64,000 nucleotides of DNA from an uncultured Syntrophobacteraceae bacterium (GTDB lineage: Bacteria; Desulfobacterota; Binatia; UBA9968): contig CAYOJC010000001.1 of the NCBI GenBank assembly GCA_964404195.1, forward strand, positions 57,940-121,939. The letters run 5' to 3'. A program made the translations under genes and the position numbers. A model generated the notes under the pieces. The model did not search any database. It was not told the DNA's origin and worked only from the letters and a program-made list of their open reading frames with translations. Shown here one piece after another: positions 2 through 57,530 of this stretch. Within the stretch, counting starts at the first letter, position 1, and the number at the start of each line of letters is the position of its first letter.

Positions 2-622
2 GCGAAGACGCGCGTGACCGAGGGTCCGCACGGCGAATCGCACGGGTTTTACGGCGATGAAAAAGAGGGGCTCGTCTTCAAAGTCAAATGTGTGACGCAC
101 AGAAAGAATCCGATCCATCAGGGACTGATCTGCAATTATATGGAAGACGGCGGCAAACGCATCACGCGCTCGGCGGTTTTGTGGGGCAAGTTAAAAAGTC
201 TCGGCACGCCCGGCGTGGTCGACGTCCGCTTTCCCGATCCGGGCTGCGGGCGCGAAATCTGCGTCGTCGCCGCCGATATCAAAGAACCGGGGCAGGTGAT
301 GCAGATCGTCGAGACGGTCTGGGGCGTCAACGCCATGGGGCCGAACTGGATCATCGTGGTCGACGCCGACGCCGATCTCGACGACTGGAACGATATTTGG
401 TGGCGCATTTATTCTAGAAGTGAGCCGCACCGCGACGTTTGGATCACGCCGCCGCGCCAGCACGGCGGGCACCAGCCGCTGGTGAAGCACGGCTTCACCT
501 CGCGCATCGCGATCGACGCGACCTCCAAGTTCAAGGGCGTGGAATTTCCCGAAGTGAACGACGTGAGCCGCGAGCTGACGCAGAAAGTCCTGAGACGGTG
601 GTCGGAGTTGGGCCTGGAGTAG
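2..622 (+). CDS. UbiD-family (prFMN-dependent) decarboxylase, C-terminal fragment; the 5' end lies upstream of the window
   Basis: The frame is open from the window edge. The translation aligns with the C-terminal region of the four complete UbiD paralogs in this window (…IVVDADADLDDWNDIWWRIYSRSEP… matches …IVVVDDDIDPTDLNEVIWAIGTRSNP…). Confidence 0.6.
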   Translation, partial: AKTRVTEGPHGESHGFYGDEKEGLVFKVKCVTHRKNPIHQGLICNYMEDGGKRITRSAVLWGKLKSLGTPGVVDVRFPDPGCGREICVVAADIKEPGQVMQIVETVWGVNAMGPNWIIVVDADADLDDWNDIWWRIYSRSEPHRDVWITPPRQHGGHQPLVKHGFTSRIAIDATSKFKGVEFPEVNDVSRELTQKVLRRWSELGLE

Positions 623-624
623 AT

Positions 625-775
625 CAGTGTGCGCGATGAATACTCACCACGAAGGACACGAAGTTGCGGAATCGACAAGAAAATATGATCTCACCACGAA
701 GCCCACGAAGGCCACGAAGGTTTGGGATATGAATAATTTTGAACTTCGTGTCCTTCGTGCCTTCGTGGTGAATCC
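625..775. repeat. REP/MITE-like element built from direct and inverted CACGAAGG/CCTTCGTG repeats
   Basis: caccacgaaggacacgaag … caccacgaagcccacgaaggccacgaagg … cttcgtgtccttcgtgccttcgtggtga. The same family occurs at 5479-5697 and 46630-46760. Confidence 0.5.
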
Positions 776-861
776 TACTTTTCTTATTTTGGTTGTGGCA
801 TTGCCGCGCTGGGCGCTTCGTGGTGAAAAGAACTTGAACCTGAAAAGTGGGAGACAGTCGA

Positions 862-3114
862 ATGGCGCATAAGGTTGTCGGGCGCTCGCTGCCCCGCGTC
901 GAGGGGGCGGCGAAGGTCAGCGGCGCGTTGAGTTACACGGCGGACATTCTTCGGCCCGGCTCTCTCTGGGGCAAAGTTCTGCGCAGCCCGCTGCCCCACG
1001 CGCGCATCCTTAATATAGATACCAGCCGGGCCATGAGCCTCCCCGGCGTGAAGGCGATCGTCACCGCCGCCGACATGAAAACGACGCTCGTCGGCGCGAC
1101 CTTGAGAGACATGCCGGTGATGGCGCGCGACCGCGTGCGCTTCGTCGGCGAGGAGATCGCCGCCGTCGCCGCCGTGGATGCCAACACGGCGGAAGAAGCG
1201 GTTGAATTGATCGACGTCGAATACGAAGATCTGCCGGCGGTTTTCGATCCGCTTGAGGCGATGAAGCCCGAGGCGCCCATCCTGCATCCGGATTACCCGA
1301 CTTATAAAGGACCGAAGACCATGGCGCTGGAACTCAAGAACGTCCAGACGCTCGTGCGCGGCCGGAAGGGCGAGATCGAAAAAGGCTTCGCCGAATCGGA
1401 TTTCATCTTCGAGAAAACTTATCGCACCCAGCTCGTGCACCAGGGCTACATCGAGCCTTACGCCTGCACGGTGGAAGTCGACGATCAGGGGCGCGTCGCC
1501 ATCTGGGTGGCGAACCAGGCGTTCTTCAAGCTCAGGCGCGTGCTGGCGGAATATTTGGAGCTTCCTCCGGAAGATATCACGATCTACCCAAGCAACATGG
1601 GCGGCTCGTTTGGCGCCAAAGATTTTCTGTTCCTGAATCCGGCGGCTTATTATCTCTCGAAAAAAACCGGCCGGCCCGTGCGCTTTGTGAAAAGCTACGG
1701 CGAAGAACTCGGAGCCACCACGCCGCGCCACTCCGCGGTGATCTCTCTCCGTGTCGGTGTAAAAAAGGACGGCCGCCTCTGGGCATGGGACGGAAAGACC
1801 TTCTACAACGGCGGCGCTTACGGCGCGTTCAAGCCCAACCCCAAAGGCTCGATGAGCGGCGCGTACATGGTCGCGGGCTCTTATAATATCCCCAACACGC
1901 GCCTCGAAGGGTATTGCGTTTACACCAATCAAGTCCCGTGCGGCTACTTCCGCGCGCCGGGGGAAGCCCAGACCCTGTTCGCGGTCGAAAGCCATATGGA
2001 CCTAATGGCCGAAGCGCTCGGCATGGATCCGATCGAGTTCCGCCGGCTGAACGCGCTGAAAGAAGGCGACACGCGCGCGACGGGCGAATCGCTGGAAGAT
2101 CCGCACTGCCTCGAAGTTCTCGATCGCGTGGCGAAAATTTCCGGATGGAAAAAGAAGCAAGCCAAAGCATCTGCCGAAAATAAATTAACCGGGCGCGGCG
2201 TGGCGCTCGGCGACCGCCACGTGGGCCACGGCGAGTCGAGCTTCGAATTGCTTCTCGAGCGCGGCGGAACGCTCCGGCTCTTGAGCGGCGTCGGTGATCA
2301 GGGGGTCGGCGCCTACACGATGCACCGCCAGGTCGCGGCCGAGCTGCTCGGAGTCAAGCCGGGCTTGATCGAGATCGAGGTCAGGGACACCTCCAACGCG
2401 CCATACGACCAGGGGATCAAGGGCGCCAGGGGGACGCACGTCGAGGGACAGGCGGTCGCGCGCGCGGCCGGCGCGTTGATCGACAATCTGCGTTCTCTCG
2501 CCGCGTCGCGATGGGGCGTGCCGGTCGAAAAGATTTCCTGGACCGATGGAGCCGCTCTCTTCAAAAACCACGGAAAAAGAAAAAAGCTGAGCTTGAAAGA
2601 ATTGGCGGGCCTTTCGGAAGCGCCGGTCAAGGGATTCGGCGAGTACACGGGACACAAGCCGCACGTCTATTCCTTTCAGGCGATCGTCGTCGACGCGGAG
2701 GTCGATCAGGAGACCGGCGCGGTCGAGTTGCAACACCTCTACTTCGTCTACGATGTCGGCACGATCATCAATCCGCTCAATCACCAGGGGCAGATCGAAG
2801 GCGGCATCGTCCAAGGCCTGGGCTACGCGCTGACCGAAGAGCTGAAAGTCGATGAAGGGCGCGTCACCACGGTGACGCTGGGCGATTACAAAATTCCCAA
2901 CATCGCCGACAATGTGCCGCTCACGACTTCGCTGGTTCAAGCGAAGGTCGGCCCCGGCCCGTTCGGCGCTAAGTCGGTGGCCGAGGCCGGAGTCAGCATC
3001 GTCGCGCCGGCGGTGGCGAACGCGGTCTACAACGCGACCGGCGTGCGGATCACTGAGCTGCCGGTCACCGCGGAAAAAATTATCGAGGGTCTCGCATGCC
3101 GTTCCAAAGTTTGA
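862..3114 (+). CDS. xanthine dehydrogenase/aldehyde oxidase-family molybdopterin-binding large subunit (copy 1)
   Basis: The protein is ~750 aa with an N-terminal a/b-hammerhead (RVEGAAKVSG..YTADI, LWGKVLRSPLPHARI) and the MoCo-domain motifs GGSFG, GYFRAPGE and GQGxxT. The ATG at 862 has a GGGAG RBS; the track start at 847 is a GTG. Confidence 0.85.
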   Translation: MAHKVVGRSLPRVEGAAKVSGALSYTADILRPGSLWGKVLRSPLPHARILNIDTSRAMSLPGVKAIVTAADMKTTLVGATLRDMPVMARDRVRFVGEEIAAVAAVDANTAEEAVELIDVEYEDLPAVFDPLEAMKPEAPILHPDYPTYKGPKTMALELKNVQTLVRGRKGEIEKGFAESDFIFEKTYRTQLVHQGYIEPYACTVEVDDQGRVAIWVANQAFFKLRRVLAEYLELPPEDITIYPSNMGGSFGAKDFLFLNPAAYYLSKKTGRPVRFVKSYGEELGATTPRHSAVISLRVGVKKDGRLWAWDGKTFYNGGAYGAFKPNPKGSMSGAYMVAGSYNIPNTRLEGYCVYTNQVPCGYFRAPGEAQTLFAVESHMDLMAEALGMDPIEFRRLNALKEGDTRATGESLEDPHCLEVLDRVAKISGWKKKQAKASAENKLTGRGVALGDRHVGHGESSFELLLERGGTLRLLSGVGDQGVGAYTMHRQVAAELLGVKPGLIEIEVRDTSNAPYDQGIKGARGTHVEGQAVARAAGALIDNLRSLAASRWGVPVEKISWTDGAALFKNHGKRKKLSLKELAGLSEAPVKGFGEYTGHKPHVYSFQAIVVDAEVDQETGAVELQHLYFVYDVGTIINPLNHQGQIEGGIVQGLGYALTEELKVDEGRVTTVTLGDYKIPNIADNVPLTTSLVQAKVGPGPFGAKSVAEAGVSIVAPAVANAVYNATGVRITELPVTAEKIIEGLACRSKV

Positions 3115-3176
3115 GAGAGTTCGTGCGCGAGTTTCACTTGTCACGACAATGGGACGCAACCCAGGGGGCTTTATGA
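3096..3176 (+). pseudogene. remnant of a UbiD 5' end (MPFQSLREFVREFHL…*) overlapping the XDH copy-1 stop
   Basis: gcatgccgttccaaagtttgagagagt (3092-3118) is 22/27 identical to the true UbiD start at 5749-5775 (gcatgccgttccaaagcctaagagatt; MPFQSLRDYL). Confidence 0.4.
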
Positions 3177-4732
3177 ACTGCTTGCGCATTGCGGCGTCTT
3201 TGTTGAGCGTATTTCTTGCCGTGGGTTTGTCCGAGGGAGCGGAGTCTCCGAGATACGGGGGGCGTTTGGTTTTTGGCCTGGCTAGAGACATCACCGGCCT
3301 GAATCCTTTCGTTCGCACCCGCTCAACCAACAAGTACGTACGGCAGATTGCCTACGAAGCGCTTTTCGACTACGACACAAAGGCTCAGCTCGTTCCGGCG
3401 CTTGCCGACTCCTGGACTGTTTCTCCCGATAGCAAGGTTTACACGATCAGGCTGCGGCGGGGGGTAAAATTTCACAACGGCGAGGAGCTGACCGCCGAAG
3501 ATGTGAAATGGAGCGCCGAATACGCCAAGGACCCCAAGAACGCGGCAACCGGAATCACCTTCTTGGAAAGAGTGCAGGCAGTGAGCGTCAAGGACAAGTA
3601 CACGGTGGAGTTCCTCCTAAAAGAGCCCCAGGCAATCTTTCTTAACCTGTTGGCATCCATGGAGGCCTCCTTCCCCGTTCTTCCCAAGGGGTCGGTGCCG
3701 GCTGCGCAGAGCAATTTGCCCAGTCCCCCTCCCGGGACCGGACCTTTTGAATTCAAAGAATACAAGCCGGCAAGAGAACTAGTCTTTGTGCGCAACAAAA
3801 ACTACTGGCAGAAAGGCCTTCCCTATCTCGACGAGCTGGTGCTCAAACCGGTGGAGGATGAGCAGGTTCGTTTTGCTTCGCTGCGCGCCGGGGACCTGGA
3901 TATGATCGAGCGAACCGCCTACGTATTCGTGAAGAAAATATTAAACAGAGAATACCCGGAGATCGGGGTTACAGAAGCCAAATATGCCGGCTTTCGGCGC
4001 CTGATATTCAACGTCGTGAATCCGCCCTTCAACGATCTCAAGCTGCGTCAGGCCGTGCTTTATGCTCTGGACAAAAAAGGCTACCTCGAAGGGGCCTTCT
4101 GGGGTCTTGGGGAGCCGGCGAACCAGGCGATTCCGACGGAGAGCCCCTGGTACGTCAAGCTGCCGGAGGCCAAGCGGGATTTGGCCAAGGTCAAGGCTCT
4201 TTTAAAGGAATCGAAAGCCGGCCCCGACTTTGAAGTGGAAATCCTGGCCCGGAGAGGGGAAGAGCCCGAGACCCAGATCCTTCGAGAGCAACTGACGACC
4301 GCCGGGATCAAAACCAGGATTGCGCTGCTGGAGAGCGCGGCGCGTGAGGCGCGGACCCGCGCAGGTGATTTTATGATAGTCCTGAGCGGGATGGATGTGC
4401 CCAACGATCCGGGGGACGATTATTCGGTGGAGTATGGCTGTAATCCCGAGGAAGTGTCGGCCAAACGACGAGGCCAGAACCAGGCCGGTTATTGCAATAA
4501 AGAATTCGACCGGCTGATGGCGGAGGCGTCGAAGATCCAGGATACGAAAAAGCGTTATGGGCTTTACGCCAATGCACTTGGGATTCTCAATCAAGAAATT
4601 CCGGCTATCTCCATGGCGTTCGTGCCGCGCTATTTCAGCTATCGACAGAAGGTGCGGGGCTTCAGGACCGACGGAGGCGATCGCTTCAACACGATCACTA
4701 CGGGACTTTCACGGGTTTGGATCGAACCTTAG
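3173..4732 (+). CDS. ABC transporter substrate-binding protein, family 5 (DppA/OppA-like), copy 1
   Basis: Signal peptide MNCLRIAASLLSVFLAVGLSEG, then RYGGRLVFGL…GLNPF…KFHNGEELTAEDV…PPGTGPF. An alternative ATG lies at 3149. It is paralogous to 20310, 25467(-) and 28635. Confidence 0.85.
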   Translation: MNCLRIAASLLSVFLAVGLSEGAESPRYGGRLVFGLARDITGLNPFVRTRSTNKYVRQIAYEALFDYDTKAQLVPALADSWTVSPDSKVYTIRLRRGVKFHNGEELTAEDVKWSAEYAKDPKNAATGITFLERVQAVSVKDKYTVEFLLKEPQAIFLNLLASMEASFPVLPKGSVPAAQSNLPSPPPGTGPFEFKEYKPARELVFVRNKNYWQKGLPYLDELVLKPVEDEQVRFASLRAGDLDMIERTAYVFVKKILNREYPEIGVTEAKYAGFRRLIFNVVNPPFNDLKLRQAVLYALDKKGYLEGAFWGLGEPANQAIPTESPWYVKLPEAKRDLAKVKALLKESKAGPDFEVEILARRGEEPETQILREQLTTAGIKTRIALLESAAREARTRAGDFMIVLSGMDVPNDPGDDYSVEYGCNPEEVSAKRRGQNQAGYCNKEFDRLMAEASKIQDTKKRYGLYANALGILNQEIPAISMAFVPRYFSYRQKVRGFRTDGGDRFNTITTGLSRVWIEP

Positions 4733-4759
4733 GTGGTCACTCGATAAAGGAGGATCAAG

Positions 4760-5479
4760 ATGCCAAAGCCGCCTGACGAATTCGTCGAAGAGCTTTTGCG
4801 CGGGAGGCTACCCCGTCGCGAGGAACGGCCGACTCGAGCGCTGATCGTTCAGGGAAAGCTCAGCAAAGAACAAGTGAAGCTATGGGTCAAGCAGCTTCAC
4901 TATTATCGCGTCAACGTGCCGCGCAAGGAGCTCTATATCCTGGCCAATTGCCCGATCAAAGAGATCCGGATGGAGCGATTGAAAAAGTATCTTGAAGAGG
5001 AGGACGATCGCGTGATGGGCGGGAAAGCCGGACCTCATGCCGAGCTGTGGGCCCAGTTGGGCGAAGGCCTGGGGATAAGCCGCGCGGAGATGGAAGACTT
5101 CGACGCCATGTGCCCGGAATACCGCCTCCTCGTCGACTCATGGGTCAACTACGCGCGCGATCACACTTGGCTGGGAGGCTCGGCCATGAGCTTCGATGAA
5201 GACGGCGGCACGGGGACCTCGGGCGAAGGAATGAACATGGCGCGGGCCTTGTCCAAATTCTACGGCGTTCCCGATTCGGGGTTGGCACATTTCACGCTCC
5301 ATTCCGAGCTTGACATCGAGCACGGCGCGTCGACCCACGACTTGATCCGAAAATACTCCCTTACGGACGAGCAACAGGAGGGCGTTCGCAACGCGGTCCG
5401 CTTCAAAAGAGCCTTCCATACGATGGAGGACCAGTGCATGCGGATCGCTTGCCGAATCGACCCGCAATTATATGCTTAG
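4760..5479 (+). CDS. PqqC-like (cofactor-independent oxygenase, haem-oxygenase-like fold) protein
   Basis: LSKEQVKLWVKQLHYYRVNVPRKELYILANCP and HAELWAQLGEGLGISRAEM align with the PqqC motifs TREQIQGWVANRFYYQ..IPLKDAAI.ANCP and IEAWLRLGEAVGLSRDDL. An AAAGGAGG RBS is present. No pqqA/B/D/E genes are nearby. Confidence 0.7.
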   Translation: MPKPPDEFVEELLRGRLPRREERPTRALIVQGKLSKEQVKLWVKQLHYYRVNVPRKELYILANCPIKEIRMERLKKYLEEEDDRVMGGKAGPHAELWAQLGEGLGISRAEMEDFDAMCPEYRLLVDSWVNYARDHTWLGGSAMSFDEDGGTGTSGEGMNMARALSKFYGVPDSGLAHFTLHSELDIEHGASTHDLIRKYSLTDEQQEGVRNAVRFKRAFHTMEDQCMRIACRIDPQLYA

Positions 5480-5697
5480 CCTGGATTATTCATCGACCGA
5501 GGAAAGATCGTGACACACTGTAGATGAGAAAAGCGTTCTTTGAGTCTTGGCGCGAGGACTTAAAAACTTCGTAACCTTCGTGCTCTTCGTGGTGATAAAC
5601 TTTTTGACCACGAAGGACACGAAGCACACGAAGGAAGAGGCGCAAAGAAAGAAGCCGTACCTCACGGAGAGGATGTATAACGGTGAATAATCCGGGC
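5479..5697. mobile_element. MITE-like element: 14-bp terminal inverted repeats (gcctggattattca / tgaataatccgggc) flanking a CACGAAGG hairpin
   Basis: The TIRs are 13/14 complementary. The core ccttcgtgctcttcgtggtg…accacgaaggacacgaagcacacgaagg is palindromic. The copy at 46630 starts with a similar TIR (ccggaatgattca). Confidence 0.45.
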
Positions 5698-5750
5698 TAG
5701 TTCGATTTGAATCGGGACAAACAGCGACCGGCAGACCTCGGAGACTTAGC

Positions 5751-7184
5751 ATGCCGTTCCAAAGCCTAAGAGATTACCTCAAGAAGGTCGAAGAGCACGG
5801 CGATCTTCTTAAGATCGACGGCGCGTCCCGCGAGGAGGAGATCGGCGCGCTGGCGGAAATCGTCGCGAGCACGGCCAAGCACCCGATGCTGCTCTTTGAC
5901 AACATCAAAGGATACCCCGCGGGATATCGCGTTTCGGCCAGCACGATGGGCGGCGTGCGCCGGATGGCTCTCGGCCTCGGCTTGGACCCGTCGCTCGCCA
6001 ATGTCGAGCTGGTAAAGGCATGGAAAGAGAAGCTCAAGACGTTCAAGCGGATCGAGCCGCGCGAAGTCGCCGACGGTCCGGTGCGGGAAAATGTTTTCTC
6101 CGGCGAAAAAATTGACTTGCTCAAATTCCCCGCGCCGAAGTGGCACGAACGCGACGGCGGCTACTACATCGGCACCGGCTGCTGCGTGATCACGCGCGAC
6201 CCCGACGATGGCTGGGTCAACATGGGCGTCTATCGCGTCGTGGTCCACGATAAGAAAACTCTCGGGATTTTTATCAACCACATCCAGCACGGCCGGCTCA
6301 TCGTCGAGAAGTACTGGTCGCAAGGAAAAAGTTGCCCGGTGATTATCTCTTTCGGACAAGACCCCGCGCTTTTTCTCGCCGCCGCGCAGCGCGAGCCGTG
6401 GGGCGTGGGCGAGCTCGACGTCGCGGGATGGCTTCGCGGCGAGCCGGTGGAAATTCTGAAAGGCGAGAGGACGGGTCTGCCGATTCCCGCGCACGCGGAG
6501 ATCGTCGTCGAAGGAGAGATCCCTCCGATCGAGAAAGAAGCGCGGCCCGAAGGGCCGTTCGGCGAGCGCACGGGTTACTACGCGACCGGGACGAGAAACG
6601 AGCCGGTCGTCCGCGTGTCGTCGCTGATGCACCGCAACGATCCGATCATCCAGGGTGATCCGCCGCTGAAGCCGGTGCCCGGCATGGACCACTTCGGCAT
6701 CCCGCTGCCCGCGGCGGGTGTGTGGTCGGCGTTGGAATCCGCCGGCATTCAAGACATCCGCGGGGTCTGGCTGCACGGCCCGTTCGCGACGGTGATCTCG
6801 CTCAAGCAGCGCTACGAAGGCCACGCGCGCCAGGCGGCGGCGATCGCGCTCGGCGCGCGCGCCACGGTGCACCTCGGAAGATTCGTCATTCTTGTCGACG
6901 ATGATATTGACCCGTCGGATCTCAGCGACGTCTTCTGGGCGGTCACGACGCGCTGCGATCCGGCGGAGCAAACGGAAGTCTTGAAAGGATTTCCGACGAG
7001 CGGCATCAATCCGCGCGTCGCGCCGGCGGACCGTGAAGAGGGACACTTTGTCTCTTCCAAGATGATCATCGACGCGTGCCGGCCGTACCGTTGGATCAAG
7101 GATTTTCCGGCGACGAACGTCATGAGCCCGGAGCTGAAAACGAAAGTAGCGGAGAAGTGGAAGCGATTGCTGGAGCGGCAGTGA
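5751..7184 (+). CDS. UbiD-family decarboxylase (copy 2)
   Basis: 477 aa. The N-terminus MPFQSLRDYL…LLFDNIKGYPAGYR matches the canonical UbiD PALLFENPKGY region, and the full-length architecture fits the family. Confidence 0.85.
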   Translation: MPFQSLRDYLKKVEEHGDLLKIDGASREEEIGALAEIVASTAKHPMLLFDNIKGYPAGYRVSASTMGGVRRMALGLGLDPSLANVELVKAWKEKLKTFKRIEPREVADGPVRENVFSGEKIDLLKFPAPKWHERDGGYYIGTGCCVITRDPDDGWVNMGVYRVVVHDKKTLGIFINHIQHGRLIVEKYWSQGKSCPVIISFGQDPALFLAAAQREPWGVGELDVAGWLRGEPVEILKGERTGLPIPAHAEIVVEGEIPPIEKEARPEGPFGERTGYYATGTRNEPVVRVSSLMHRNDPIIQGDPPLKPVPGMDHFGIPLPAAGVWSALESAGIQDIRGVWLHGPFATVISLKQRYEGHARQAAAIALGARATVHLGRFVILVDDDIDPSDLSDVFWAVTTRCDPAEQTEVLKGFPTSGINPRVAPADREEGHFVSSKMIIDACRPYRWIKDFPATNVMSPELKTKVAEKWKRLLERQ

Positions 7185-7278
7185 GTTTTCCATGCCGGCG
7201 ACCGTGCCGCGCGAGGCATCGCGTCCGGCTTCAAGGACGAATTATACAAACAAGCCCCGTGAGAAGAATGCAAGGCCA

Positions 7279-9531
7279 ATGGATTTTCTGACGATCGGCC
7301 AGCCGGTCCCGCGCGTCGACGGCCCCGCCAAGGTGAGCGGCGCGTGCGTTTACACGGCCGACGTTCCCGGCGCGGGAACGCTGTGGGGAAAATTTTATCG
7401 CAGCCCGCTGCCGCACGCGCGCATCCTGAACGTCGATACGGGAAAAGCCAAGAAAGTTCCCGGCGTCAAAGCCGTGATCTCCGCCGGCGACGTGTCGCCG
7501 CGGCGCGAGGGCTACACGCTGCAGGACAAGCCGATCTTCGCGCGGAAAAAAGTTTTATATTGCGGGGAAAAGGTCGCGGGAGTCGCGGCCGTCGATAAGG
7601 ACGCGGCGGAAGAGGCCGTCGCGTTGATCGAAGTCGAGTACGAAGAGCTGCCGGCGGTGTTCGATCCGCTCGAGGCGATGAAACCGGAAGCGCCCCTGCT
7701 TCACCCCGACTATGCCTCCTACCTTGGGCCGCCGAGCATGGCGCCGGATCTGAAAAACGTCCAGAGCGTGATGCGCGCCGCCAAAGGCGACACCGCCAGA
7801 GGATTCGCGGAATCGGACGAGATTTTTGAAAACTCTTTTCGCACGCAGATGGTCCACCAGGGCTTCATCGAGCCGCGCGCGTGCCGGGTCGAGATCGACC
7901 GCGACGGACGGATCCAGGTCTGGTTTTGCCATCAATCGAGCTTCAAGGTCCGCCGCTGGATGGCGACGCACCTCGGAATTGCCGAGGAGAAAATCGTCGT
8001 CCATCCGGTCGCGCTCGGCGGCTCGTTCGGCGGCAAAGAAGGCTATGAGGAGGCGCTCTGCACCTATTACCTGGCCGCGGCCGCCGGCAAGCCGGTGAAA
8101 GTGGTGGATAGCTACGCCGAGGAGCTGCTCGACGGCGAGCCGCGCCACGCGGCGGTAATCCGGCTTGGCACCGGCGTGAAGCGGGACGGCCGGCTGTGGG
8201 CGTGGGAGGGAAAGATATTTTACAACGGCGGCGCCTACGCCGCGCGAAAGCCCAGCCCGAAGGCCAACATGAGCGGCACCTTCATGCTGGCGGGCTCGTA
8301 CAACATCCTGCATACGCTCATGGAAGGCTACGCGGTTTACACCAATCAAATACCGTGCGGCTACTTTCGCGCGCCGGGAGAGCCGCAGACGCTCTTCGCC
8401 GTCGAATCACACGTCGACATGATCGCCGAAACCTTGGGCATCGATCCGCTCGAGTTTCGCTTGAAGAACGTGTTGCGCGCGGGAGATACGAGGGCGACGG
8501 GGGAGCCGCTCGCCGATCCGCGCGGCGCGGAAGCGCTCAGCGAGCTGGGAAAAATTTCGGCCTGGAAAAAAACTTCTCTAAAACCGACGCGAGGCCGGAA
8601 GCTCCGCGGGCGCGGGCTCGCCCTCGGCGACCGCCACGTGGGCCACGGCGAGTCCAGCGCCGAGATTTATCTCGAGCGCGACGGCGCGGTGCGCCTCGTC
8701 ACTTCCGTGAGAGATCAGGGCGTCGGCGCTTACACGATGCATCGCCAGGTCGCGGCGGAAACGTTGGGCATCGAGCCGGAGCGCGTTCGGGTCGAGATCA
8801 AAGGGACGGCCGACGGTCCTTACGACGAGGGCGTCCGGGGCGCCCGCGGCGCGCACGTCGAAGGCCGTGCGGTGTTGCGCGCGGCCGAAAACTTAATCGC
8901 ATGTCTCCGAAAACAGGCCGCGGCGTACTGGAGAGTCGACGCCGGCAAGGTCGAGTGGCAAGCGGGCAAGGCGTGGTTGGCGAACGGCCGAAAATCCAAA
9001 AACCTCGGACTTAACGATCTGGCCCGCATGATCGAAGCGCCGCTCAAAGGCTACGGCCATTACAAGGCCGAGAAAAAACCTTCGGTCTATTCCTTTCAGG
9101 CGATCGCCGCAGACGTCGAAGTCGACGCCGAAACCGGCGCAGCGCGCGTCGCGAAGCTCTATTTTACTTACGACGTGACCAAAGTCATCAATCCGGTCAT
9201 TCACCAGGGACAGATCGACGGCGCGATCGTCCAGGGATTGGGCTATTCGTTGATGGAGGAAATGGCCGTGGACGAAGGGCGGGTGCTCACGCTGAGCCTC
9301 GGCGATTACAAGATACCCAACATCAAAGACGTTCCGCCCCTCGTCACTTCTCTGGTGCAAGCCAAAAAAGGGCCCGGACCTTTCGGCGTGAAGGCCGTGG
9401 CGGAAGCGGGCATCAGCATCGTCGCTCCCGCGATCGCCAACGCCGTTTACAACGCGACCGGCGTGAGAATCACGGAGCTGCCGGTCACGGCGGAAAAAAT
9501 TCTCGCCGGTCTGGCGCGTCTTTCTAAATGA
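7279..9531 (+). CDS. xanthine dehydrogenase-family molybdopterin-binding large subunit (copy 2)
   Basis: It is paralogous to 862..3114 (PRVDGPAKVSGACVYTADV…GYFRAPGEPQTLFAVESH). The ATG at 7279 is in frame; the track ORF was extended upstream. Confidence 0.85.
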   Translation: MDFLTIGQPVPRVDGPAKVSGACVYTADVPGAGTLWGKFYRSPLPHARILNVDTGKAKKVPGVKAVISAGDVSPRREGYTLQDKPIFARKKVLYCGEKVAGVAAVDKDAAEEAVALIEVEYEELPAVFDPLEAMKPEAPLLHPDYASYLGPPSMAPDLKNVQSVMRAAKGDTARGFAESDEIFENSFRTQMVHQGFIEPRACRVEIDRDGRIQVWFCHQSSFKVRRWMATHLGIAEEKIVVHPVALGGSFGGKEGYEEALCTYYLAAAAGKPVKVVDSYAEELLDGEPRHAAVIRLGTGVKRDGRLWAWEGKIFYNGGAYAARKPSPKANMSGTFMLAGSYNILHTLMEGYAVYTNQIPCGYFRAPGEPQTLFAVESHVDMIAETLGIDPLEFRLKNVLRAGDTRATGEPLADPRGAEALSELGKISAWKKTSLKPTRGRKLRGRGLALGDRHVGHGESSAEIYLERDGAVRLVTSVRDQGVGAYTMHRQVAAETLGIEPERVRVEIKGTADGPYDEGVRGARGAHVEGRAVLRAAENLIACLRKQAAAYWRVDAGKVEWQAGKAWLANGRKSKNLGLNDLARMIEAPLKGYGHYKAEKKPSVYSFQAIAADVEVDAETGAARVAKLYFTYDVTKVINPVIHQGQIDGAIVQGLGYSLMEEMAVDEGRVLTLSLGDYKIPNIKDVPPLVTSLVQAKKGPGPFGVKAVAEAGISIVAPAIANAVYNATGVRITELPVTAEKILAGLARLSK

Positions 9532-10589
9532 ACATGGCGGTCCTTAAACCCGAAGAGCATGAGCGGATGGTGATGGAGTCGGTCCGCTTCGCCAAGGAAG
9601 AAGCGAAGCGGCGGCAACAGGCACCGGTGCAGATCAAGGCCGAGGAGATCCGCGCGCAGTTCGAAACGAATTCCCATCTCTATCTCGTCGATCCGCGGTT
9701 GGGCTTCAATCACCGGACGTTTCGCTTCTGGATCAACCGCATCCCCGCGGGCGAGGAAGAGGGGATGGGCTGGAAGACGCTCGGCCACCGCCACACGGTC
9801 GAGGCGGTGCTCCACGTGCTGCAAGGAACCGGCCACAGCATCGTCGACGGCGCGCGCTACGACTGGGCGCCGGGCGATTTTATCAGCGTGCCGATGTTTT
9901 CCTGGCACCGCCACGTGAACACCGGCGACGAAGATTTTATTTATCTGGCGGCGACCACCGGCCCGCTGTCGTTGTCTCTCGGATTGGCGGTCTACGAAGA
10001 CGAGCGGTATCCGGACTATTGGGTCTTCGGCCACAAGAGCGAGAGCGCGATGAAGTCGCTGATCCCCGGCGCGGACGACAGCACGCGCGTGCGCACTGCC
10101 GAGGAGGCGTCGCGGGAGCCGCTGAGCCCGACGGACGCCTATTACCGGCAGCACCTGTTGTTTTCCGGCGGCGAGGAGAAGCGCCGCCGCCAAAGCCGGG
10201 TGCTGGTGAAAGGGGCTCAAGTCGATTTCGAAAAGACCGCCATGGGACGCGTCCGTTATGTGATCGATCCGCGGACGGGCTTTCTCATGCGCGTCCTGGG
10301 GACGCTGTTGGCCGAGATCTCTCCGGGAAAACGCTCCGGCGCGCACCGGCATATGTACGAAGAGGTGAATTATGTCCTTTCAGGGCGCGGCTACAGCCTG
10401 ATCGAAGATCGGAGATACGACTGGGCGGCAGGCGACGTTCTTTGTATTCCGGTCTTCGGTTGGCATCAGCACTTCAACACCGGCAAGGAGCCGGCGCGGC
10501 TGTTGGTCCATCACAACCGGCCGCTGATGGAAAATCTGGGCTTCATGCACGTCGAACAAGGCGAAGAAGCAGAGGAGGAATCCTTATGA
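9528..10589 (+). CDS. bicupin dioxygenase, gentisate 1,2-dioxygenase-like
   Basis: Two cupin modules each carry His motifs (GHRHTVEAVLHVLQGTG…SWHRHVN and GAHRHMYEEVNYVLSGRG…GWHQHFN). The start ATG overlaps the XDH stop (ATGA). Confidence 0.7.
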   Translation: MNMAVLKPEEHERMVMESVRFAKEEAKRRQQAPVQIKAEEIRAQFETNSHLYLVDPRLGFNHRTFRFWINRIPAGEEEGMGWKTLGHRHTVEAVLHVLQGTGHSIVDGARYDWAPGDFISVPMFSWHRHVNTGDEDFIYLAATTGPLSLSLGLAVYEDERYPDYWVFGHKSESAMKSLIPGADDSTRVRTAEEASREPLSPTDAYYRQHLLFSGGEEKRRRQSRVLVKGAQVDFEKTAMGRVRYVIDPRTGFLMRVLGTLLAEISPGKRSGAHRHMYEEVNYVLSGRGYSLIEDRRYDWAAGDVLCIPVFGWHQHFNTGKEPARLLVHHNRPLMENLGFMHVEQGEEAEEESL

Positions 10590-11595: not shown

Positions 11596-13038
11596 ATGAA
11601 CACGGATCTGCGAGACTGGATCGTTGCGGTACAAGCCACCGGTGAGATCAAGACGCTCAGCGGCGCAGACTGGAACAGAGAGATCGGCACGCTGGTTGAG
11701 CTCAACGCCAAGGCGCGTGGGCCGGCCCTGCTCTTCGACGAGATCAGGGGCTACCCGGCGGGCTTCAGGCTGCTGGCCGGGGCGATGTCGAGCGCCAGAA
11801 GACTCGCCCTGACGCTTGGGCTTCCGCCCGATCTCGATGGGCTCGAACTCATCCGTTGCATGAAAGACAGCATGCGCGGCTGGAACGACCGCCTGGGTGA
11901 TTTTCCGCCGGTAGAGGTTCAAAGCGGCGTCGTCTTTGAAAACGTGGATGCCGAGGAAAAGACCAATCTGTTAAAGTTTCCATCCCCGCTTTGGCACGAA
12001 GAGGACGGCGGGCGCTATATCGGCACAGGCTCGGTTGCCATCATGCGAGACCCGGAAAGCGGCTGGATCAATCTAGGCACCTACAGGATCATGGTTCACG
12101 ATGAAAAGAGCGCCGGCATCTTCATGGCACCCGGCCACCATGGCGGAATCATCATGAAGAAATACTGGAAAGCGGGCAAACCCTGCCCGATTGCCGTCTC
12201 CGCCGGCCATCACCCGCTGATTTTTTTTGCCGGATCTTCTTCGCTTCCCGCGGAGACTTCGGAATACAACTACGTCGGTTCCATTCTGAAGGAGTCGGTG
12301 CCGGTCGTGATGGGACCCGTCACCGGGCTTCCGATTCCGGCCTACAGCGAAGTCGCATTCGAAGGCCACCTTTTTCCCGACGAAATGAAAACCGAGGGAA
12401 TATTCGGCGAATGGCCCGGCTACTACGTGAGCGAGGCCAAGCCGGAGCCGGTCATCCGGGTCAAGGCCGTGTATCACCGAAACGATCCGATTCTGCTCGG
12501 CGCCTGGCCCGGAAAACCACCCCACGACAGCACTTACCGAAACTCGATCATAAAGTCTGCAAGCCTTTGGGAGCTTCTCGAACGAGCGCGCATTCATGGC
12601 GTCACCGGCGTTTATCGCCCGGAGGCCGGGAGCGCAAATCTTTTGACGATCGTCAGGATCAAGCAGCTCTACGACGGCCACGCCCGCCAGGTGGGAACCG
12701 TAGCTTCGCAGCTTCTCCATCCGTCACATTCCACCCGCTATGTCATCGTCGTCGATGACGGCCTCGACATCACCAATCTTGAGGAGGTGATGTGGGCGGT
12801 CTGCACGCGCAGCGACCCGGCGCGCTCGATCGCCATCATTGACCAGACCCACGCCAACGCTCTCGACCCGATGGTTCGCTCACGCTATGACAAAGCGGCC
12901 GGCAACACGGCTTCCTGCGCGATCATCGACGCCTGCTGGCCCTACCGCGCGCTTGCCAAAGTCCCCAAGGTCGCAGAGTCGAGCGAGGAGTTTAAAAAAC
13001 AGGTCAAAGCCAAGTGGAGAGGAAAACTGTCTCTGTAA
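11596..13038 (+). CDS. UbiD-family decarboxylase (copy 3)
   Basis: 480 aa. GPALLFDEIRGYPAGFR and a UbiD-like C-terminus (VIVVDDGLDITNLEEVMWAV). Confidence 0.85.
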   Translation: MNTDLRDWIVAVQATGEIKTLSGADWNREIGTLVELNAKARGPALLFDEIRGYPAGFRLLAGAMSSARRLALTLGLPPDLDGLELIRCMKDSMRGWNDRLGDFPPVEVQSGVVFENVDAEEKTNLLKFPSPLWHEEDGGRYIGTGSVAIMRDPESGWINLGTYRIMVHDEKSAGIFMAPGHHGGIIMKKYWKAGKPCPIAVSAGHHPLIFFAGSSSLPAETSEYNYVGSILKESVPVVMGPVTGLPIPAYSEVAFEGHLFPDEMKTEGIFGEWPGYYVSEAKPEPVIRVKAVYHRNDPILLGAWPGKPPHDSTYRNSIIKSASLWELLERARIHGVTGVYRPEAGSANLLTIVRIKQLYDGHARQVGTVASQLLHPSHSTRYVIVVDDGLDITNLEEVMWAVCTRSDPARSIAIIDQTHANALDPMVRSRYDKAAGNTASCAIIDACWPYRALAKVPKVAESSEEFKKQVKAKWRGKLSL

Positions 13039-13052
13039 GCCGTTCTTTTTTA

Positions 13053-14246
13053 TCAGGTATGTTCTTTCTGGAGGAACCAATCGGTGGGGATCTCGTGGCC
13101 CAGCTCCAGGCGACGCGCGCCGGCGAGAATCCGCGCGCCGGTCGCCGCATGCTGGATGCCGAGGCCGATGTTGTTACAGTGAAAGGTGATCTCATCGTCC
13201 TTTCTCCTACCCTTGATTTTTCCCGTCAGCAGCTCGCCGAGCTCGTGCATCGAGGCCCAGTCGAGCTGCCGCGATTTTTTGTTGATGTTGCTCCCGACCG
13301 TATCCATCTTCTTCCCCATGACGAAGTCGCGCACCAGATCGCTCCCGCCGGAGAAGGGGCGCGCGTTGACGACGATGAGATCGCTGATCTTAAAGCTCGC
13401 CGCGTCCGCCTCGACGATGTTGATGCTGCCGAAATGCGCGCCTTCCTCGATCCAGCGCGCGCGAAAGACCGGCGTCAGAGAGGTCGTGGCGCTCAACACA
13501 ATTTCCGAACCGGGGCAAACGTCTTGCGGCTTATCGACTGGAACGATCTCGATTCCCGTGGCCCGCTCCATGCTGGCGGCGAAGGCTTTGCGGTGGCCGG
13601 CGTTGGGGCTGAACACTTTGACGCGCTTAAGCTTTCTCACCAGAGCGGCCGCCATCACCTGGCCCTCGGCCTGGAAACCAGTGCCAAAAAGGCCCAGCGT
13701 CTGAGCCTCCTTTCGCGCCAGGTGCTTGATCCCGACGGCGGAAGTCGCCGCCACGCGGTTTCTCTGCAGCGGTCCGAGCGGCAGAATGGCGAGCAGCTCG
13801 CCGCTTACGATATCGAAGAGAAGCATCATGCCCGTGTAGCGCCAGCCCGATCCAAGTGGCAGCTTTACGCTCCGCTTGACGCCGTTGACGACGGGGTTGG
13901 TGTCCGTCGTCGAGTCGATTTTCAGCGCCATGATGCCGCACTTCGGATAGCCGCCCGGAATGGTCTTGAGCCGATAGTTCAGCTCCTCGGTTCGCTTGGC
14001 GGCGCGAACCCACAGAGGGGACTGATGCGGATCGGCGTCGACCGGGAGATCGCGCAGCAGTTTCTTTGCCTTTCGGCTGACCTCAGCGGAAGCGCCGTAT
14101 TTGAGAAGCGGAATGCCGGTCTCGGTGCGCGGCGCGTTGATCGCCGCTCCTTTGCCCAACTCCGTGAAGGCCTCTTCCATCGCCTCGATGTAGCCCTTGA
14201 GATCCAGGGCCCGCAGGACCTCTTCCGTATTCAAGACCAGCGTCAT
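13053..14246 (-). CDS. ornithine cyclodeaminase/mu-crystallin family protein
   Basis: Rossmann motif LGLFGTGFQAEGQV and OCD-family architecture (~397 aa). It is the only minus-strand gene in the first 25 kb. The overlapping + ORF 13014..14390 is an R-rich artefact. Confidence 0.75.
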   Translation of the reverse strand: MTLVLNTEEVLRALDLKGYIEAMEEAFTELGKGAAINAPRTETGIPLLKYGASAEVSRKAKKLLRDLPVDADPHQSPLWVRAAKRTEELNYRLKTIPGGYPKCGIMALKIDSTTDTNPVVNGVKRSVKLPLGSGWRYTGMMLLFDIVSGELLAILPLGPLQRNRVAATSAVGIKHLARKEAQTLGLFGTGFQAEGQVMAAALVRKLKRVKVFSPNAGHRKAFAASMERATGIEIVPVDKPQDVCPGSEIVLSATTSLTPVFRARWIEEGAHFGSINIVEADAASFKISDLIVVNARPFSGGSDLVRDFVMGKKMDTVGSNINKKSRQLDWASMHELGELLTGKIKGRRKDDEITFHCNNIGLGIQHAATGARILAGARRLELGHEIPTDWFLQKEHT

Positions 14247-14352
14247 TTTGCCCCCGCCGGACGATTTTCCCGGTTTAAGATTTTTTCGTTTTCGCCGACC
14301 GGCTTTTTTATAGGCCAGCCTGGTCGGAAAGACAACCGATCTATTGACCGAT

Positions 14353-14428
14353 GCCGGCGCGGCTGTTGGTCCATCACAACCGGCCGCTGATGGAAAATCT
14401 GGGATTCATGCACGTCGAACAAGGCGAA
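14353..14428 (+). repeat. 76-bp remnant of the bicupin 3' end (75/76 identical to 10491-10566)
   Basis: Direct comparison of gccggcgcggctgttggtccatcacaaccggccgctgatggaaaatctggg[c/a]ttcatgcacgtcgaacaaggcgaa. It lies immediately upstream of NMT1-like SBP copy 2, in the same position as the intact bicupin relative to copy 1. Confidence 0.8.
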
Positions 14429-14435
14429 TCGAGCG

Positions 14436-15431
14436 ATGATTAAAATAACATTGTTTTTGCTCTACATGATTTTTCTACTCGCGCGCGCGGATATCTCCCT
14501 CGCGCAGAAGCGGCCGCTGCGGGCTTCTTATCCGGCGCCGACCACCGTGTATCTCCCTCTTTGGGTCGCCAAGGACGCAGGTTTTTTCACCAAGCAGGGC
14601 GTCGATGTCGAGCTGGTTCACGTCGGTTCTTCTCCGATCGCCATGGCCGCGTTTTTGGCCGGGGAGATCGACATCCTGGGCGGCGGCGGCTCGAGCGGCC
14701 CCAATGCCTATCTCAGGGGACAGCGCGACCTGGCGTTTTTCGTTTCGATGAACAACAAATTTGTCTTTTCCATCTATGGCCCACCGACGATGGCGAATCT
14801 GTCCGCCGTGCGCGGCAAGCGCATCGGCGTGACGCGCTTCGGCGGGACCATGGACTTCGCCACGCGCCATTTCCTGCGGCTCAGCGGGCTCGATCCCGCG
14901 CGCGACGTGGCGATGGTCCAGGTCGGCAGGGTGCAGGATATTCTGTCGGCGATGGCGGCGGGCTCGGTGGACGTCGGCACGATGGCGTTTCCCTACGATA
15001 TTAAAGCGAGGGAGAGCGGCTATCGCGAGCTCGCCGATCTCGCGCAGAGCGGAGCGCGTTACGCTTCGTCGTCTTTTTTGGGGAAGCGGCAATTTCTCGC
15101 GCAGCAGAAGCCCCGCATCGAGTCGTTCGTGCGTGGACTGATCGAGGCGATTCACTTTATCCGGACGCGGCGCGACGAAGGCATAAAAATTCTCGCGCGC
15201 TATACGCGCATGTCGGATATGAACATCCTGCAGCAGACCTACGATTTCCACAGCAGGGTGATCTGGCCCCGGGTGCCGGAGCTGCAGCCCGAGGATCTGA
15301 AGCTCGTCCTGGAAGAACTGGCGGACGCCAACCCCAAGGCGCGCGAGATCGATCCCGCGGAGCTGATTTACGGCGCCGCAATAAAAGACGTGGTCGCGAG
15401 CGGATTCGTCGAGAAGCTTTATGCGCGGTGA
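14436..15431 (+). CDS. NMT1/THI5-like periplasmic substrate-binding protein, copy 2
   Basis: Paralog of 10586..11572 (LRASYPAPTTVYLPLWVAKDAGFF…GGGGSSGPNAY). Confidence 0.75.
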   Translation: MIKITLFLLYMIFLLARADISLAQKRPLRASYPAPTTVYLPLWVAKDAGFFTKQGVDVELVHVGSSPIAMAAFLAGEIDILGGGGSSGPNAYLRGQRDLAFFVSMNNKFVFSIYGPPTMANLSAVRGKRIGVTRFGGTMDFATRHFLRLSGLDPARDVAMVQVGRVQDILSAMAAGSVDVGTMAFPYDIKARESGYRELADLAQSGARYASSSFLGKRQFLAQQKPRIESFVRGLIEAIHFIRTRRDEGIKILARYTRMSDMNILQQTYDFHSRVIWPRVPELQPEDLKLVLEELADANPKAREIDPAELIYGAAIKDVVASGFVEKLYAR

Positions 15432-16430
15432 GTTAAAGAAGGGCCCGCGAATCGCCTGGCTGCTTCTCTTGATCTGGATCGGGCCGATTCCAGCGAACGG
15501 CGCCGTTGCGCCGGCGCCGCTGCGGGTTTCGTACCCGGCGCCGACGGCTTCTCAGCTTCCTCTCTGGGTGGCCAAAGAATGGAAATTTTTCGACAAACAC
15601 GGCGTAGGCGTCGAGCTCGTCTACGTCGGCTCGTCGTCCATCGCCATCGCCGCGCTCTTAGCGGGAATCTGGACGTCGTCGCCGGCGGCGGGGTCGGCGG
15701 CATCGCCTCTTACCTGCAGGGCTATCGCGACCTGGCGCTCTTCGCCAGCTTGAACAACCGCTTGAATTTTTTCGTCTACGCGCATCCCTCGATCACAGAT
15801 CCGTCCGGACTTCGCGGCAAGCGGTTCGGCGTCAGCCGCTTCGGCGGCGTCGGCGATTTCGCGGCGCGTTATTTCTTGAAGCGCTCGGGTCTCGATCCGC
15901 GTAAGGACCTGGCCATGATCCAGGTGGGCAGCCAGTTGGAATTGACTCCGGCGCTGGCGCGCGGCGCCGTCGACGCGGGCACCGTATCGGTGCCGCAGAA
16001 CTTTGCAGCCAAGAAGCTGGGCTATCGAGAGCTGGCCGACTTGACGCAGAGCGGCGCGCGATACGCCTCGAACGCTTTTTTGGCCAAGAAGCAATTCCTC
16101 ATCGACAACAGAGCGCGCATGGAAACTTTCCTGCGGGCCGTGATCGAATCGATCCATTTCATTAAAACGCGCCGGCCGGAGGCTTTGAGCGTCCTCGCCC
16201 GTTATACGAGAACGAACGACACGGAAGCTTTGGGTTTGATTTACGACGAATACGTCCACAAGGTCTGGCCGCAGATCCCTGGAATCGAGCCCGAAGATTT
16301 GAAGGCGGTCTTTGAACAGCTGGGGGAAACCAATCCTAAAGCGCTGGAAGTCAATCCCGCCGAGCTGGTGTACGCGCCGCTCATGGATAATGTGGTCAAG
16401 TCGGGTTTTGTGAAGGAACTTTACCGCTGA
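15421..16430 (+). pseudogene. NMT1/THI5-like substrate-binding protein, copy 3, disrupted by a -1 frameshift near 15666
   Basis: Frame 1 (15421..15753) carries the N-terminus and frame 3 (15579..16430) the rest. Restoring one A in gggaa(a)tctg gives LLAGNLDVVAGGGVGGIASYLQGYRDL, which is collinear with the paralogs. This may be a true pseudogene or a homopolymer sequencing error. Confidence 0.6.
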
Positions 16431-17434
16431 TGGGAAGAACGCGAGTCATCGCCGCGATCATTTTTGCTTGGATCGCGATTGCCGCGGGCGGCGCGAGCGG
16501 CGCCGCTGCGCCGGCTTCTCTGCGCATCGCCTACCCGGCGCCGACCGCTTCTTTTCTTCCGCTCTGGACGGCCCAGGACGCAGGGTTTTTCAAGAAGCAC
16601 GATCTCGCGGTGGAAGTGATCCGGGTCGGATCCTCGACCCGCGGCATGGCCGCTTTGCTCGCGGGCCAGATCGACGTGCTCGCGGGCGGCGGCACCGGCG
16701 GCCTGGTGGCGCAGTTGCAAGGCTTCACCGATCTCGCGGTCTTCGGCACCAACGTGCATACTTGGGTGTTTTCGGTCTACACGGCGCCGTCGATCAAAGA
16801 CGTCGCGCAGCTCCGCGGCAAGAAGTTGGGCGTGACCCGGTTCGGCGGGACTATGGATTTCGCGGCGCGCCACTTTCTCAAAGGACAGGGGTTAGAGCCG
16901 GGGAAGGACGTCGTTCTGGTTCAGCTCGGCAGCGCGGCGGACATCGTCACCGCTTTGGCCAACGGAGTCGTCGATTCCGGGATGATGTCGGTCCCTTATG
17001 TGTTCGTCGCAAAAAGGTTGGGACTCCGGGAGCTGACCGATCTCTCCCAAACCGGGATACGCTACGCGCAGGCGGCGCTGGTTGCGAAGAGAAGTTTTCT
17101 GCGCGACAAACGGGAAGTTGTGACTCGGTTTATCAAGTCGCAGATCGAGGCGATTCATTTTTTAAAGACGCGTCCGGCCGACGGCATGCGCGTCCTGGGC
17201 CGCTATACGCGAACCGATGACGAGGAAATTTTGAAGCAGGCGTACCATTACCACGTGGACCGGCTGCTCTCGCGCGTTCCCGACATTCATCCGGACGATG
17301 TCAGATTATTGTTGGAGGAAGCCGCGCTCACCAATCTCAAAGCCAAGGGCGCGAATCCGCAGGATTTCATCGACGAGGGACCGGTGCGCGAAGTCGTGCG
17401 CTCCGGCTTCGTCGAGCAGCTTTACAAGAAATAA
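16430..17434 (+). CDS. NMT1/THI5-like periplasmic substrate-binding protein, copy 4
   Basis: LRIAYPAPTASFLPLWTAQDAGFF. The start overlaps the copy-3 stop (TGATG). Confidence 0.75.
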   Translation: MGRTRVIAAIIFAWIAIAAGGASGAAAPASLRIAYPAPTASFLPLWTAQDAGFFKKHDLAVEVIRVGSSTRGMAALLAGQIDVLAGGGTGGLVAQLQGFTDLAVFGTNVHTWVFSVYTAPSIKDVAQLRGKKLGVTRFGGTMDFAARHFLKGQGLEPGKDVVLVQLGSAADIVTALANGVVDSGMMSVPYVFVAKRLGLRELTDLSQTGIRYAQAALVAKRSFLRDKREVVTRFIKSQIEAIHFLKTRPADGMRVLGRYTRTDDEEILKQAYHYHVDRLLSRVPDIHPDDVRLLLEEAALTNLKAKGANPQDFIDEGPVREVVRSGFVEQLYKK

Positions 17435-25390: not shown

Positions 25391-25466
25391 TCGTGGCTCG
25401 TGCTCGTGCCGAAAAAACGAACACGAAACTTTGTAGGCCGCCTTCGAAGTGACACGAACACGTTTT

Positions 25467-55462: not shown

Positions 55463-55544
55463 AGTTGTCCTGATAAGCAGTGATCCATATGAGAGAATTC
55501 TTGCGCGTGCCTGAACAACTTCCCGCGGAGCAGAAGATCATCCG
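55393..55544 (+). repeat. ~150-bp perfect direct repeat, copy 1, spanning the 3' end of the T domain, the 17-nt spacer and the 5' end of the next A-T gene
   Basis: Identical to 57379-57530. Similarity continues at ~95% for a further ≥170 bp. Confidence 0.85.
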
Positions 55545-57447: not shown

Positions 57448-57530
57448 AGTTGTCCTGATAAGCAGTGATCCATATGAGAGAATTCTTGCGCGTGCCTGAA
57501 CAACTTCCCGCGGAGCAGAAGATCATCCGC
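57379..57530 (+). repeat. ~150-bp perfect direct repeat, copy 2 (tandem-duplication junction)
   Basis: See 55393-55544. Confidence 0.85.

Follow-up and report, generated by a model that had tools for sequence, protein, structure and literature searches.

A duplicated XDH-1/UbiD-2 junction on either side of a two-gene module in uncultured Binatia

Genes and the repeated junction

The window, a 64,000-nucleotide (nt) stretch of DNA from an uncultured member of the Binatia, carries near its start a gene for an enzyme of the xanthine dehydrogenase family (XDH-1) and, further along, a gene for a UbiD-family decarboxylase homologue (UbiD-2). Two genes and a small element resembling a miniature inverted-repeat transposable element (MITE) lie between them. 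A short sequence spanning the end of XDH-1 and the start of UbiD-2 is present twice, once on each side of the two intervening genes, and it is this duplicated junction that we describe here. The features concerned are listed below in window coordinates, with a plus sign for the forward strand.

14-622: C-terminal part of a UbiD gene at the window start; a hairpin-rich spacer comes next, then XDH-1
862-3114, +: XDH-1, large molybdopterin-binding subunit, xanthine dehydrogenase / aldehyde oxidase family (Pfam Ald_Xan_dh_C, MoCoBD_1, MoCoBD_2); alternative GTG start at 847
3094-3120, +: left junction copy, with the last XDH-1 codons, the stop (3112-3114) and what is probably left of the first 8 UbiD-2 codons; compared with 5749-5775 it is identical at 16/16 in the core and at 22/27 in register
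3096-3176, +: relic open reading frame (ORF) of 26 codons, MPFQSLREFVREFHLSRQWDATQGAL and stop, opened by what would be the old UbiD-2 start codon
3173-4732, +: first putatively inserted gene, family-5 periplasmic solute-binding protein, 519 residues (Pfam SBP_bac_5, E 1.5e-84)
4760-5479, +: second putatively inserted gene, PqqC/TenA-like protein of the "iron-containing redox enzyme" family, 239 residues (Pfam Haem_oxygenas_2, TENA_THI-4)
5479-5697, no strand assigned: MITE-like element, 219 nt, non-coding, inverted ends GCCTGGATTATTCA / TGAATAATCCGGGC
5749-5775, +: right junction copy, holding the working UbiD-2 start
5751-7184, +: UbiD-2, UbiD-family (prenylated-FMN type) decarboxylase homologue, 477 residues (Pfam UbiD_N, UbiD, UbiD_C)

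The core of the duplication is an exact 16-nt direct repeat, GCATGCCGTTCCAAAG, with copies at 3094-3109 and 5749-5764. Identity in register is 22/27 up to 3120/5775, beyond which similarity is at background level, and the firm extent that we claim for the window is 3094-3120 and 5749-5775, 27 nt each. The binding-protein and PqqC-like genes sit between the two copies, of which the left ends XDH-1 and the right starts UbiD-2 (at 5751, N-terminus MPFQSLRDYL). About 50 nt separate the left copy from the first of the two genes, a binding-protein gene whose product has a signal-peptide-like N-terminus; its conserved start is the ATG at 3173 and not position 3149, where it had been placed in an earlier note on this DNA. 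The same note had reported that the bases around the UbiD-2 start recur at the end of XDH-1, in a copy (given as 3092-3118) that overlaps XDH-1 and opens a 26-codon ORF. Both observations held up, with the exact core at the positions given above and the ORF at 3096-3176. An Rfam scan of 500-7500 at E <= 0.1 gave no match, and a promoter and terminator scan of 2900-5900 found sites no commoner than in shuffled sequences.

The last residues of XDH-1 deserve separate mention. The protein ends in GLACRSKV and XDH-2, a paralogue downstream, in GLARLSK; uninterrupted orthologues in related genomes end in CRSKA, CLSKA and similar. The earlier note had derived the XDH-1 tail (...CRSKV) from the overlap with UbiD-2, but a tail that is kept both in uninterrupted orthologues and in XDH-2 is native XDH sequence. 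The borrowing appears to have gone the other way: judged from these sequences, it is the first five UbiD-2 codons (MPFQS) that seem to have arisen inside the XDH tail, read in another frame.

The junction in related genomes

Relatives were collected in two scans. The XDH-1 scan, with one genome per species, gave ten loci, seven of them from Candidatus Binatia metagenome-assembled genomes (MAGs); XDH-1 orthologues in Binatia contigs are 74-91% identical. The UbiD-2 scan of metagenomes gave 14 orthologous loci (L015-L028), 13 of them full-length at 72-91% and a partial one, L028, at 94%, for an overall range of 72-94%. A further group of UbiD homologues, about 50% identical (L029-L094), had no XDH context in common and was uninformative, and an exact-sequence look-up of UbiD-2 returned two short contigs alone, each with 133 nt upstream.

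In eight independent Candidatus Binatia contigs (L003, L007, L016, L017, L022, L023, L024 and L027) the orthologue of XDH-1 is followed at once by that of UbiD-2. These contigs come from different samples, and both genes are full length. The UbiD-2 ATG lies inside the XDH-1 frame in the sequence ATGCCGTTCCAAAGCCTGA, where 19 nt are read in two frames, and the XDH-1 stop follows 16-18 nt past that ATG, as in L003 (GGTTTGGC ATGCCGTTCCAAAGCC TGA GAGACTATCTC). A ribosome-binding site, GAGG, stands 9-13 nt 5' of the ATG and is weaker or absent in L024. In the uninterrupted genomes the UbiD gene next after XDH-1 is none other than the UbiD-2 orthologue, with 87% nucleotide identity; L024 and L027 belong to a separate UbiD-2 clade, 72-73% identical to the window protein, and are also uninterrupted. 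An uninterrupted XDH-UbiD order had been predicted in the earlier note and is what comparison with related genomes turned up. The uninterrupted contigs are unlikely to be assembly collapses, given a repeat of 27 nt against a k of 141, which is what we take "k141" in the record titles of L003 and L007 to mean (MEGAHIT assembly).

Overlapping stop/start pairs are common in bacterial operons and can couple translation. The relatives' junction is alike in that the UbiD-2 start and its GAGG lie within the coding end of XDH-1; the window differs in that its XDH-1/UbiD-2 pair is pulled apart. By this comparison the ancestral arrangement would be an ordinary overlapping gene pair, whose two members may have been translationally coupled. 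Coupling by overlap has an engineered example (PMC4966725).

The interrupted order is shared as well. XDH-1, relic, family-5 binding protein, PqqC-like gene and UbiD-2 follow one another in the window and in L005, L014, L020 and L021, with the binding-protein gene at the equivalent place in all four relatives; the inserted order is seen in part in L013, L015 and L019, which are partial contigs, and in four JGI contigs known from gene lists. For the PqqC-like protein 86 homologues were found, and the nearest by sequence share the same gene context. We aligned the junction copies on the ATG and compared them block by block with the consensus of uninterrupted junctions. Similarity of the left copies to that consensus ends about 24-27 nt past the ATG (through the XDH-1 stop and GAGAG), and similarity of the right copies begins about 8-18 nt before it. 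Decayed but recognisable left copies stand at the equivalent place in L005, L014, L020 and L018. Upstream of the right copy, L020 has AATTCCCTGAGGTC, which matches the XDH tail AATTCTCAGAGGTC in register (p=0.014), and the corresponding matches are borderline in L018 (p=0.05) and L014 (p=0.09). In the window, positions of about 5736-5748 (GGAGACTTAGC, about 13-18 nt) might be what decay has left of the XDH-1 tail, still serving as a ribosome-binding site. The original duplication would have covered at least about 27 nt, perhaps about 40-50 nt.

A more distant locus has another arrangement. In L026 (6435-7000, and also in L025) a 565-nt repeat-rich spacer lies between XDH-1, with the tail EKILRGLTKII, and a UbiD-2 gene that starts MPFPSFREFL.

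The MITE-like element has a history of its own. Its insertion point is the TA of the PqqC-like stop codon, a TA that is duplicated at 5477-5478 and 5698-5699, and its ends match at 13 of 14 nt (19 nt at 89% complementarity, counting the TA). The site is empty in L005, L013, L014 and L020, where 8-56 nt separate the PqqC-like stop from the UbiD-2 ATG. Since it is absent from these four insertion-bearing loci and has its own inverted ends and TA duplication, the element is a separate, later insertion. The earlier note had the binding-protein gene, the PqqC-like gene and the MITE all inserted into an ancestral XDH-UbiD junction; the uninterrupted relatives agree with this for the two genes, and the MITE has to be taken out of that event. 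With its terminal inverted repeats, small non-coding body, target duplication and empty orthologous site the element resembles MITEs with TA duplication, of the IS630 / Tc1-mariner type. It differs from them in that no second copy was seen in the window or in 97 loci: its ends occur once in the window, and of the loci the same-sequence contigs L001 and L002 alone carry the element. No parent transposon was identified. Its inner hairpin is made of 9-nt CACGAAGGA units. Arrays of CACGAAGGA / CTTCGTG forming long hairpins are found in intergenic spacers at 640-790, 5563-5635, 25390-25450 and about 46654; they make up a dispersed hairpin repeat family with one array inside the MITE-like element, the inner CACGAAG hairpin arrays recurring at 640-790 and elsewhere.

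Origin of the duplicated junction

Given that the XDH tail is native and that UbiD-2 starts inside it, the UbiD-2 start would have arisen while the gene abutted XDH-1, and if it arose there, the uninterrupted state would be the older one and the gene pair would have been inserted later. The tail-derived start is retained in every insertion-bearing genome, and even L096, whose UbiD-2 orthologue is 78% identical and stands in other surroundings, still has MPFQSLRD, whereas other UbiD paralogues begin straight with an LR(D/A)W motif (MNTDLRDW, MDDLRAW). We judge the repeat to be real because it lies exactly on the stop/start pair and because of the comparative evidence from relatives, and we consider it very probable that the duplicated junction is an evolutionary scar of the insertion of the gene pair and not a working element.

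The events may be pictured as follows. In the ancestor, XDH-1 and UbiD-2 would have overlapped, with GAGG and the first codons (ATG CCG TTC CAA AG...) lying within the last XDH-1 codons in another frame and 19 nt in common. A module of about 2.4 kb comprising the binding-protein and PqqC-like genes would then have been inserted at the junction and have duplicated it, leaving a left copy that now serves as the XDH-1 C-terminus and stop alone and a right copy that serves as the UbiD-2 start alone. The surviving structure would duplicate the overlap and the ribosome-binding site because an insertion would otherwise not leave both genes intact. The 26-codon ORF at 3096 would be the orphaned UbiD-2 start running into the new spacer. 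Later, in the lineage of the window, the 219-nt MITE-like element entered the TA of the PqqC-like stop codon, and the junction copies together with the homologous flanks would since have let different Binatia lineages lose or exchange the module time and again. We infer a single origin for the insertion.

Several observations weigh against this account. Within the window alone the repeat is statistically unremarkable: with up to 3 mismatches, 0.74 matches are expected per window and two or more were reached in 14 of 100 shuffles, which puts the repeat within chance expectation. The part of the left copy past the XDH-1 stop, the sole part that XDH coding leaves unexplained, is just 5-8 nt (GAGAGAG). 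The match to the XDH tail upstream of the right copy is nonsignificant in the window (8/17 bases, p=0.19) and in L005, and such likeness may come partly from the fact that UbiD-2 needs a ribosome-binding site. Neither the window nor the homologue contexts L095-L097 yielded a donor locus for the module, and no insertion mechanism was identified. Finally, the neighbour-joining trees of XDH-1 and UbiD-2 are mutually incongruent and bootstrap values of the re-rooted trees may be misplaced, so that later gains and losses are not reliably countable, either in number or by direction.

The same figures would suit a chance similarity, a 16-nt match that happens to fall on a stop and a start with no common history, and the window does hold a few other exact pairs of 16-17 nt, such as 2346/53740, which may be chance. 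Chance is almost certainly not the explanation, however: it is refuted by the eight contigs in which the same sequence is XDH-1 end and UbiD-2 start at once, and decayed left copies stand at the same place in four other loci. It is also very unlikely, in our estimation, that the four-gene order is original, that no insertion ever took place and that the uninterrupted loci are all deletions between fortuitously similar stretches. Such a history would sit well with the spread of the inserted state over both main clades and over contigs with a PqqC-like protein just 77% identical, with uninterrupted L003 and L024 adjoining insertion-bearing relatives in the XDH-1 tree, and with L018, where a deletion did happen. 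It leaves the origin of the similarity unexplained, given that the tail is native XDH sequence. The start of UbiD-2 in a tail copy in all insertion-bearing genomes, with tail-like sequence further upstream in L020, L014 and L018, requires an earlier abutting state, and the separate clade of L024 and L027 is uninterrupted. A different UbiD paralogue, once 3' of XDH-1 and since deleted, might instead have left the relic at 3096 as its stump. The differences after the 16-nt core are coding-like (AGT/AGC, TTG/CTA, E/D, F/Y, V/L), as would fit two genes diverged under selection, and the UbiD-2 orthologue of L025 and L026 starts MPFPSFREFL. Yet homology stops 24-27 nt past the ATG in all five left copies without any further UbiD remnant, the sequence past GAGAGA matches UbiD-2 at chance level, the gene after XDH-1 in uninterrupted genomes is the UbiD-2 orthologue, and the other paralogues start MNTDLRDW and MDDLRAW. 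We regard this stump as highly improbable.

A role for the relic start in the present arrangement is another matter, compatible with an origin as a scar. The old UbiD-2 ribosome-binding site and ATG could have been co-opted as an upstream ORF (uORF) that couples translation of the binding protein to XDH-1. The ORF overlaps the last 19 nt of XDH-1 and meets the binding-protein start at 3173 in an ATGA overlap, and in the window, L014 and L020 alike the ATG opens an ORF of 22-26 codons that ends exactly in ATGA on the binding-protein start. Against this, the ATG is AGG in L005, which also has a frame shift, and ATC in L018, and the peptides of L014 and L020 differ from that of the window after residue 7 and are unrelated beyond it. 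Just ahead of the binding-protein gene lies a purine-rich site of its own (GGGGG or AGGAGG), and it is not improbable in GC-rich DNA that one of three frames stays open for about 20 codons. Nor do L014 and L020 count as independent of each other, which leaves two independent lineages in all and a weak case. Co-option therefore seems to us quite unlikely. The loss of the start in two loci and the difference in peptides between clades likewise speak against a real small protein, a possibility that the earlier note had allowed for; the ORF is not conserved and is probably a by-product.

As to how the module might have arrived, the direct repeats around inserted DNA recall the target-site duplications of transposons, which are 2-15 nt long, exact and abut the element ends, whereas here the repeat is at least 27 nt long and imperfect (22/27). 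By Pfam the 2.4-kb segment has SBP_bac_5 and PqqC-like domains only, with no transposase, and no inverted repeat was reported at its borders. Insertion as a transposon fails on these grounds, with a long imperfect repeat, no inverted ends and no transposase. Integrase-mediated integration of the attL/attR kind fails as well, there being no recombinase or integrase by Pfam among the genes between 14 and 14390. A Campbell-type single crossover, or homology-facilitated illegitimate recombination, leaves an insert flanked by a duplicated piece of the target and requires neither a transposase nor an integrase. The duplicated target piece around the insert is the point of likeness, and the difference is that no donor molecule or locus was found. 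The window has no second PqqC-like gene; distant PqqC-like homologues (71-73% identical) stand in an NMT1-SBP5-PqqC-UbiD-4-like order in L095, in a PqqC-cupin-UbiD-2 order in L096 and in an unrelated context in L097. By analogy, the present state resembles homology-anchored or Campbell-type integration more closely than it does transposition.

Later history of the module and the surrounding cluster

The insertion is found in both main clades of the XDH-1 tree, which are about 76% identical in protein, and the left copies and spacers of the two are recognisably related. The binding-protein/PqqC-like pair is old and not recent, being common to two clades about 25% diverged in XDH-1. Inserted and uninterrupted states are interleaved in the gene trees of XDH-1 and of UbiD-2, which is the one coarse statement for which we use these trees and which speaks for the account given above. 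The state has changed lately in places. Over XDH-1, UbiD-2 and 3.5 kb downstream, uninterrupted L016 and insertion-bearing L020 agree in 94-97% of their nucleotides, and the module is what sets them apart, pointing to a recent switch of state. In the last 60 nt of XDH-1, L020 matches L014 at 51/60 and L016 at 42/60, while further upstream in the gene the affinity is reversed (91% to L016 vs 77% to L014). In L018 the two junction copies are 57 nt apart and the two genes are gone (480-600), the sole remnant of the insert being a 7-nt match (ACCACNC) to the left spacer of L020. We read L018 as an apparently imprecise secondary deletion, which shows that secondary loss occurs. Sliding identity of the window against L003 and L005 gave no clear breakpoint of a mosaic, and the three are about equidistant in UbiD-2.

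These patterns are like those of deletion between short imperfect direct repeats, in that copies of at least 27 nt flank 2.6 kb and precisely the DNA in between is missing from close relatives, where one hybrid junction stands instead (L016 vs L020; L003 vs the window). They differ in that the direction of the change is inferred and that exchange of whole alleles via long homologous flanks gives the same pattern. An engineered analogue comes from chloroplast genomes, in which imperfect direct repeats are resolved (PMC4966725). Repeated loss, by deletion between or near the junction copies and/or by allele exchange via homologous flanks, would account for the distribution seen. A stronger version, in which the junction is a recurrent recombination site and the pair a reversible cassette of Binatia populations that comes and goes precisely and leaves XDH-1 and UbiD-2 undamaged, with the UbiD-2 start reused besides as a uORF coupling binding-protein translation to XDH-1, strikes us as unlikely.

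Gene content varies around the junction too. Downstream of UbiD-2 the window has XDH-2 (7192-9531), a bicupin gene that meets it in an ATGA overlap, NMT1-type binding-protein genes and two further UbiD genes. XDH-2 is present or absent among relatives: the bicupin gene follows directly after UbiD-2 in L003 (13600-13700) and L015 (1443-1458), L014 has an SBP_bac_1 gene in place of XDH-2, and L005 has about 1.1-1.2 kb of extra DNA on either side of it. L004, a Binatia MAG (12232-16850), is without UbiD-2, XDH-2, the bicupin gene and UbiD-3; its XDH-1 is followed by an NMT1-type gene matching window 15520-16433 and then by orthologues of UbiD-4 and XDH-3.

A second duplicated-junction scar lies at window 14353-14428, which is a copy of 10490-10565 (76 nt, 75/76 identical, sharp borders). 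What has been copied is the end of the bicupin coding sequence (3' end, ...PARLLVHHNRPLMENLGFMHVEQGE), and the copy lies just upstream of a second NMT1-type binding-protein gene at 14436-15431. The gene after one copy is only 71-75% like the gene after the other, and L003 has a single copy. Between UbiD-3 and this bicupin-tail relic is a 458-codon ORF without a Pfam match (13014-14390), with a 397-codon ORF on the opposite strand at 13053-14246, in a stretch that is absent from L003. A region resembling non-ribosomal peptide synthetase genes (50375-59525) holds one 1695-residue protein with two AMP-binding (adenylation) stretches, two PP-binding (carrier) stretches and one condensation domain, followed by two tandem paralogous adenylation-carrier genes (55480-57447 and 57465-59525). 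These have exact repeats of up to 152 nt in common, a sign that they were duplicated, or underwent gene conversion, not long ago.

Searching the literature for Binatia in combination with UbiD returned nothing. The scar is best seen as an ordinary rearrangement in a fast-shuffling catabolic cluster of uncultured Binatia and not as a new kind of system. It offers a clean natural case of the splitting of an overlapping gene pair, in which the overlap was duplicated and the duplicate records the event, and in annotation it means that the 26-codon ORF ought to be left out of the gene calls. More broadly, this multi-paralogue cluster, with its UbiD-type decarboxylases, XDH-family hydroxylases, bicupins and many binding proteins, is reshuffled among uncultured Binatia, and even genomes with 95-97% identity in the flanks hold different modules, which bears on how differences in gene content between MAGs are read.

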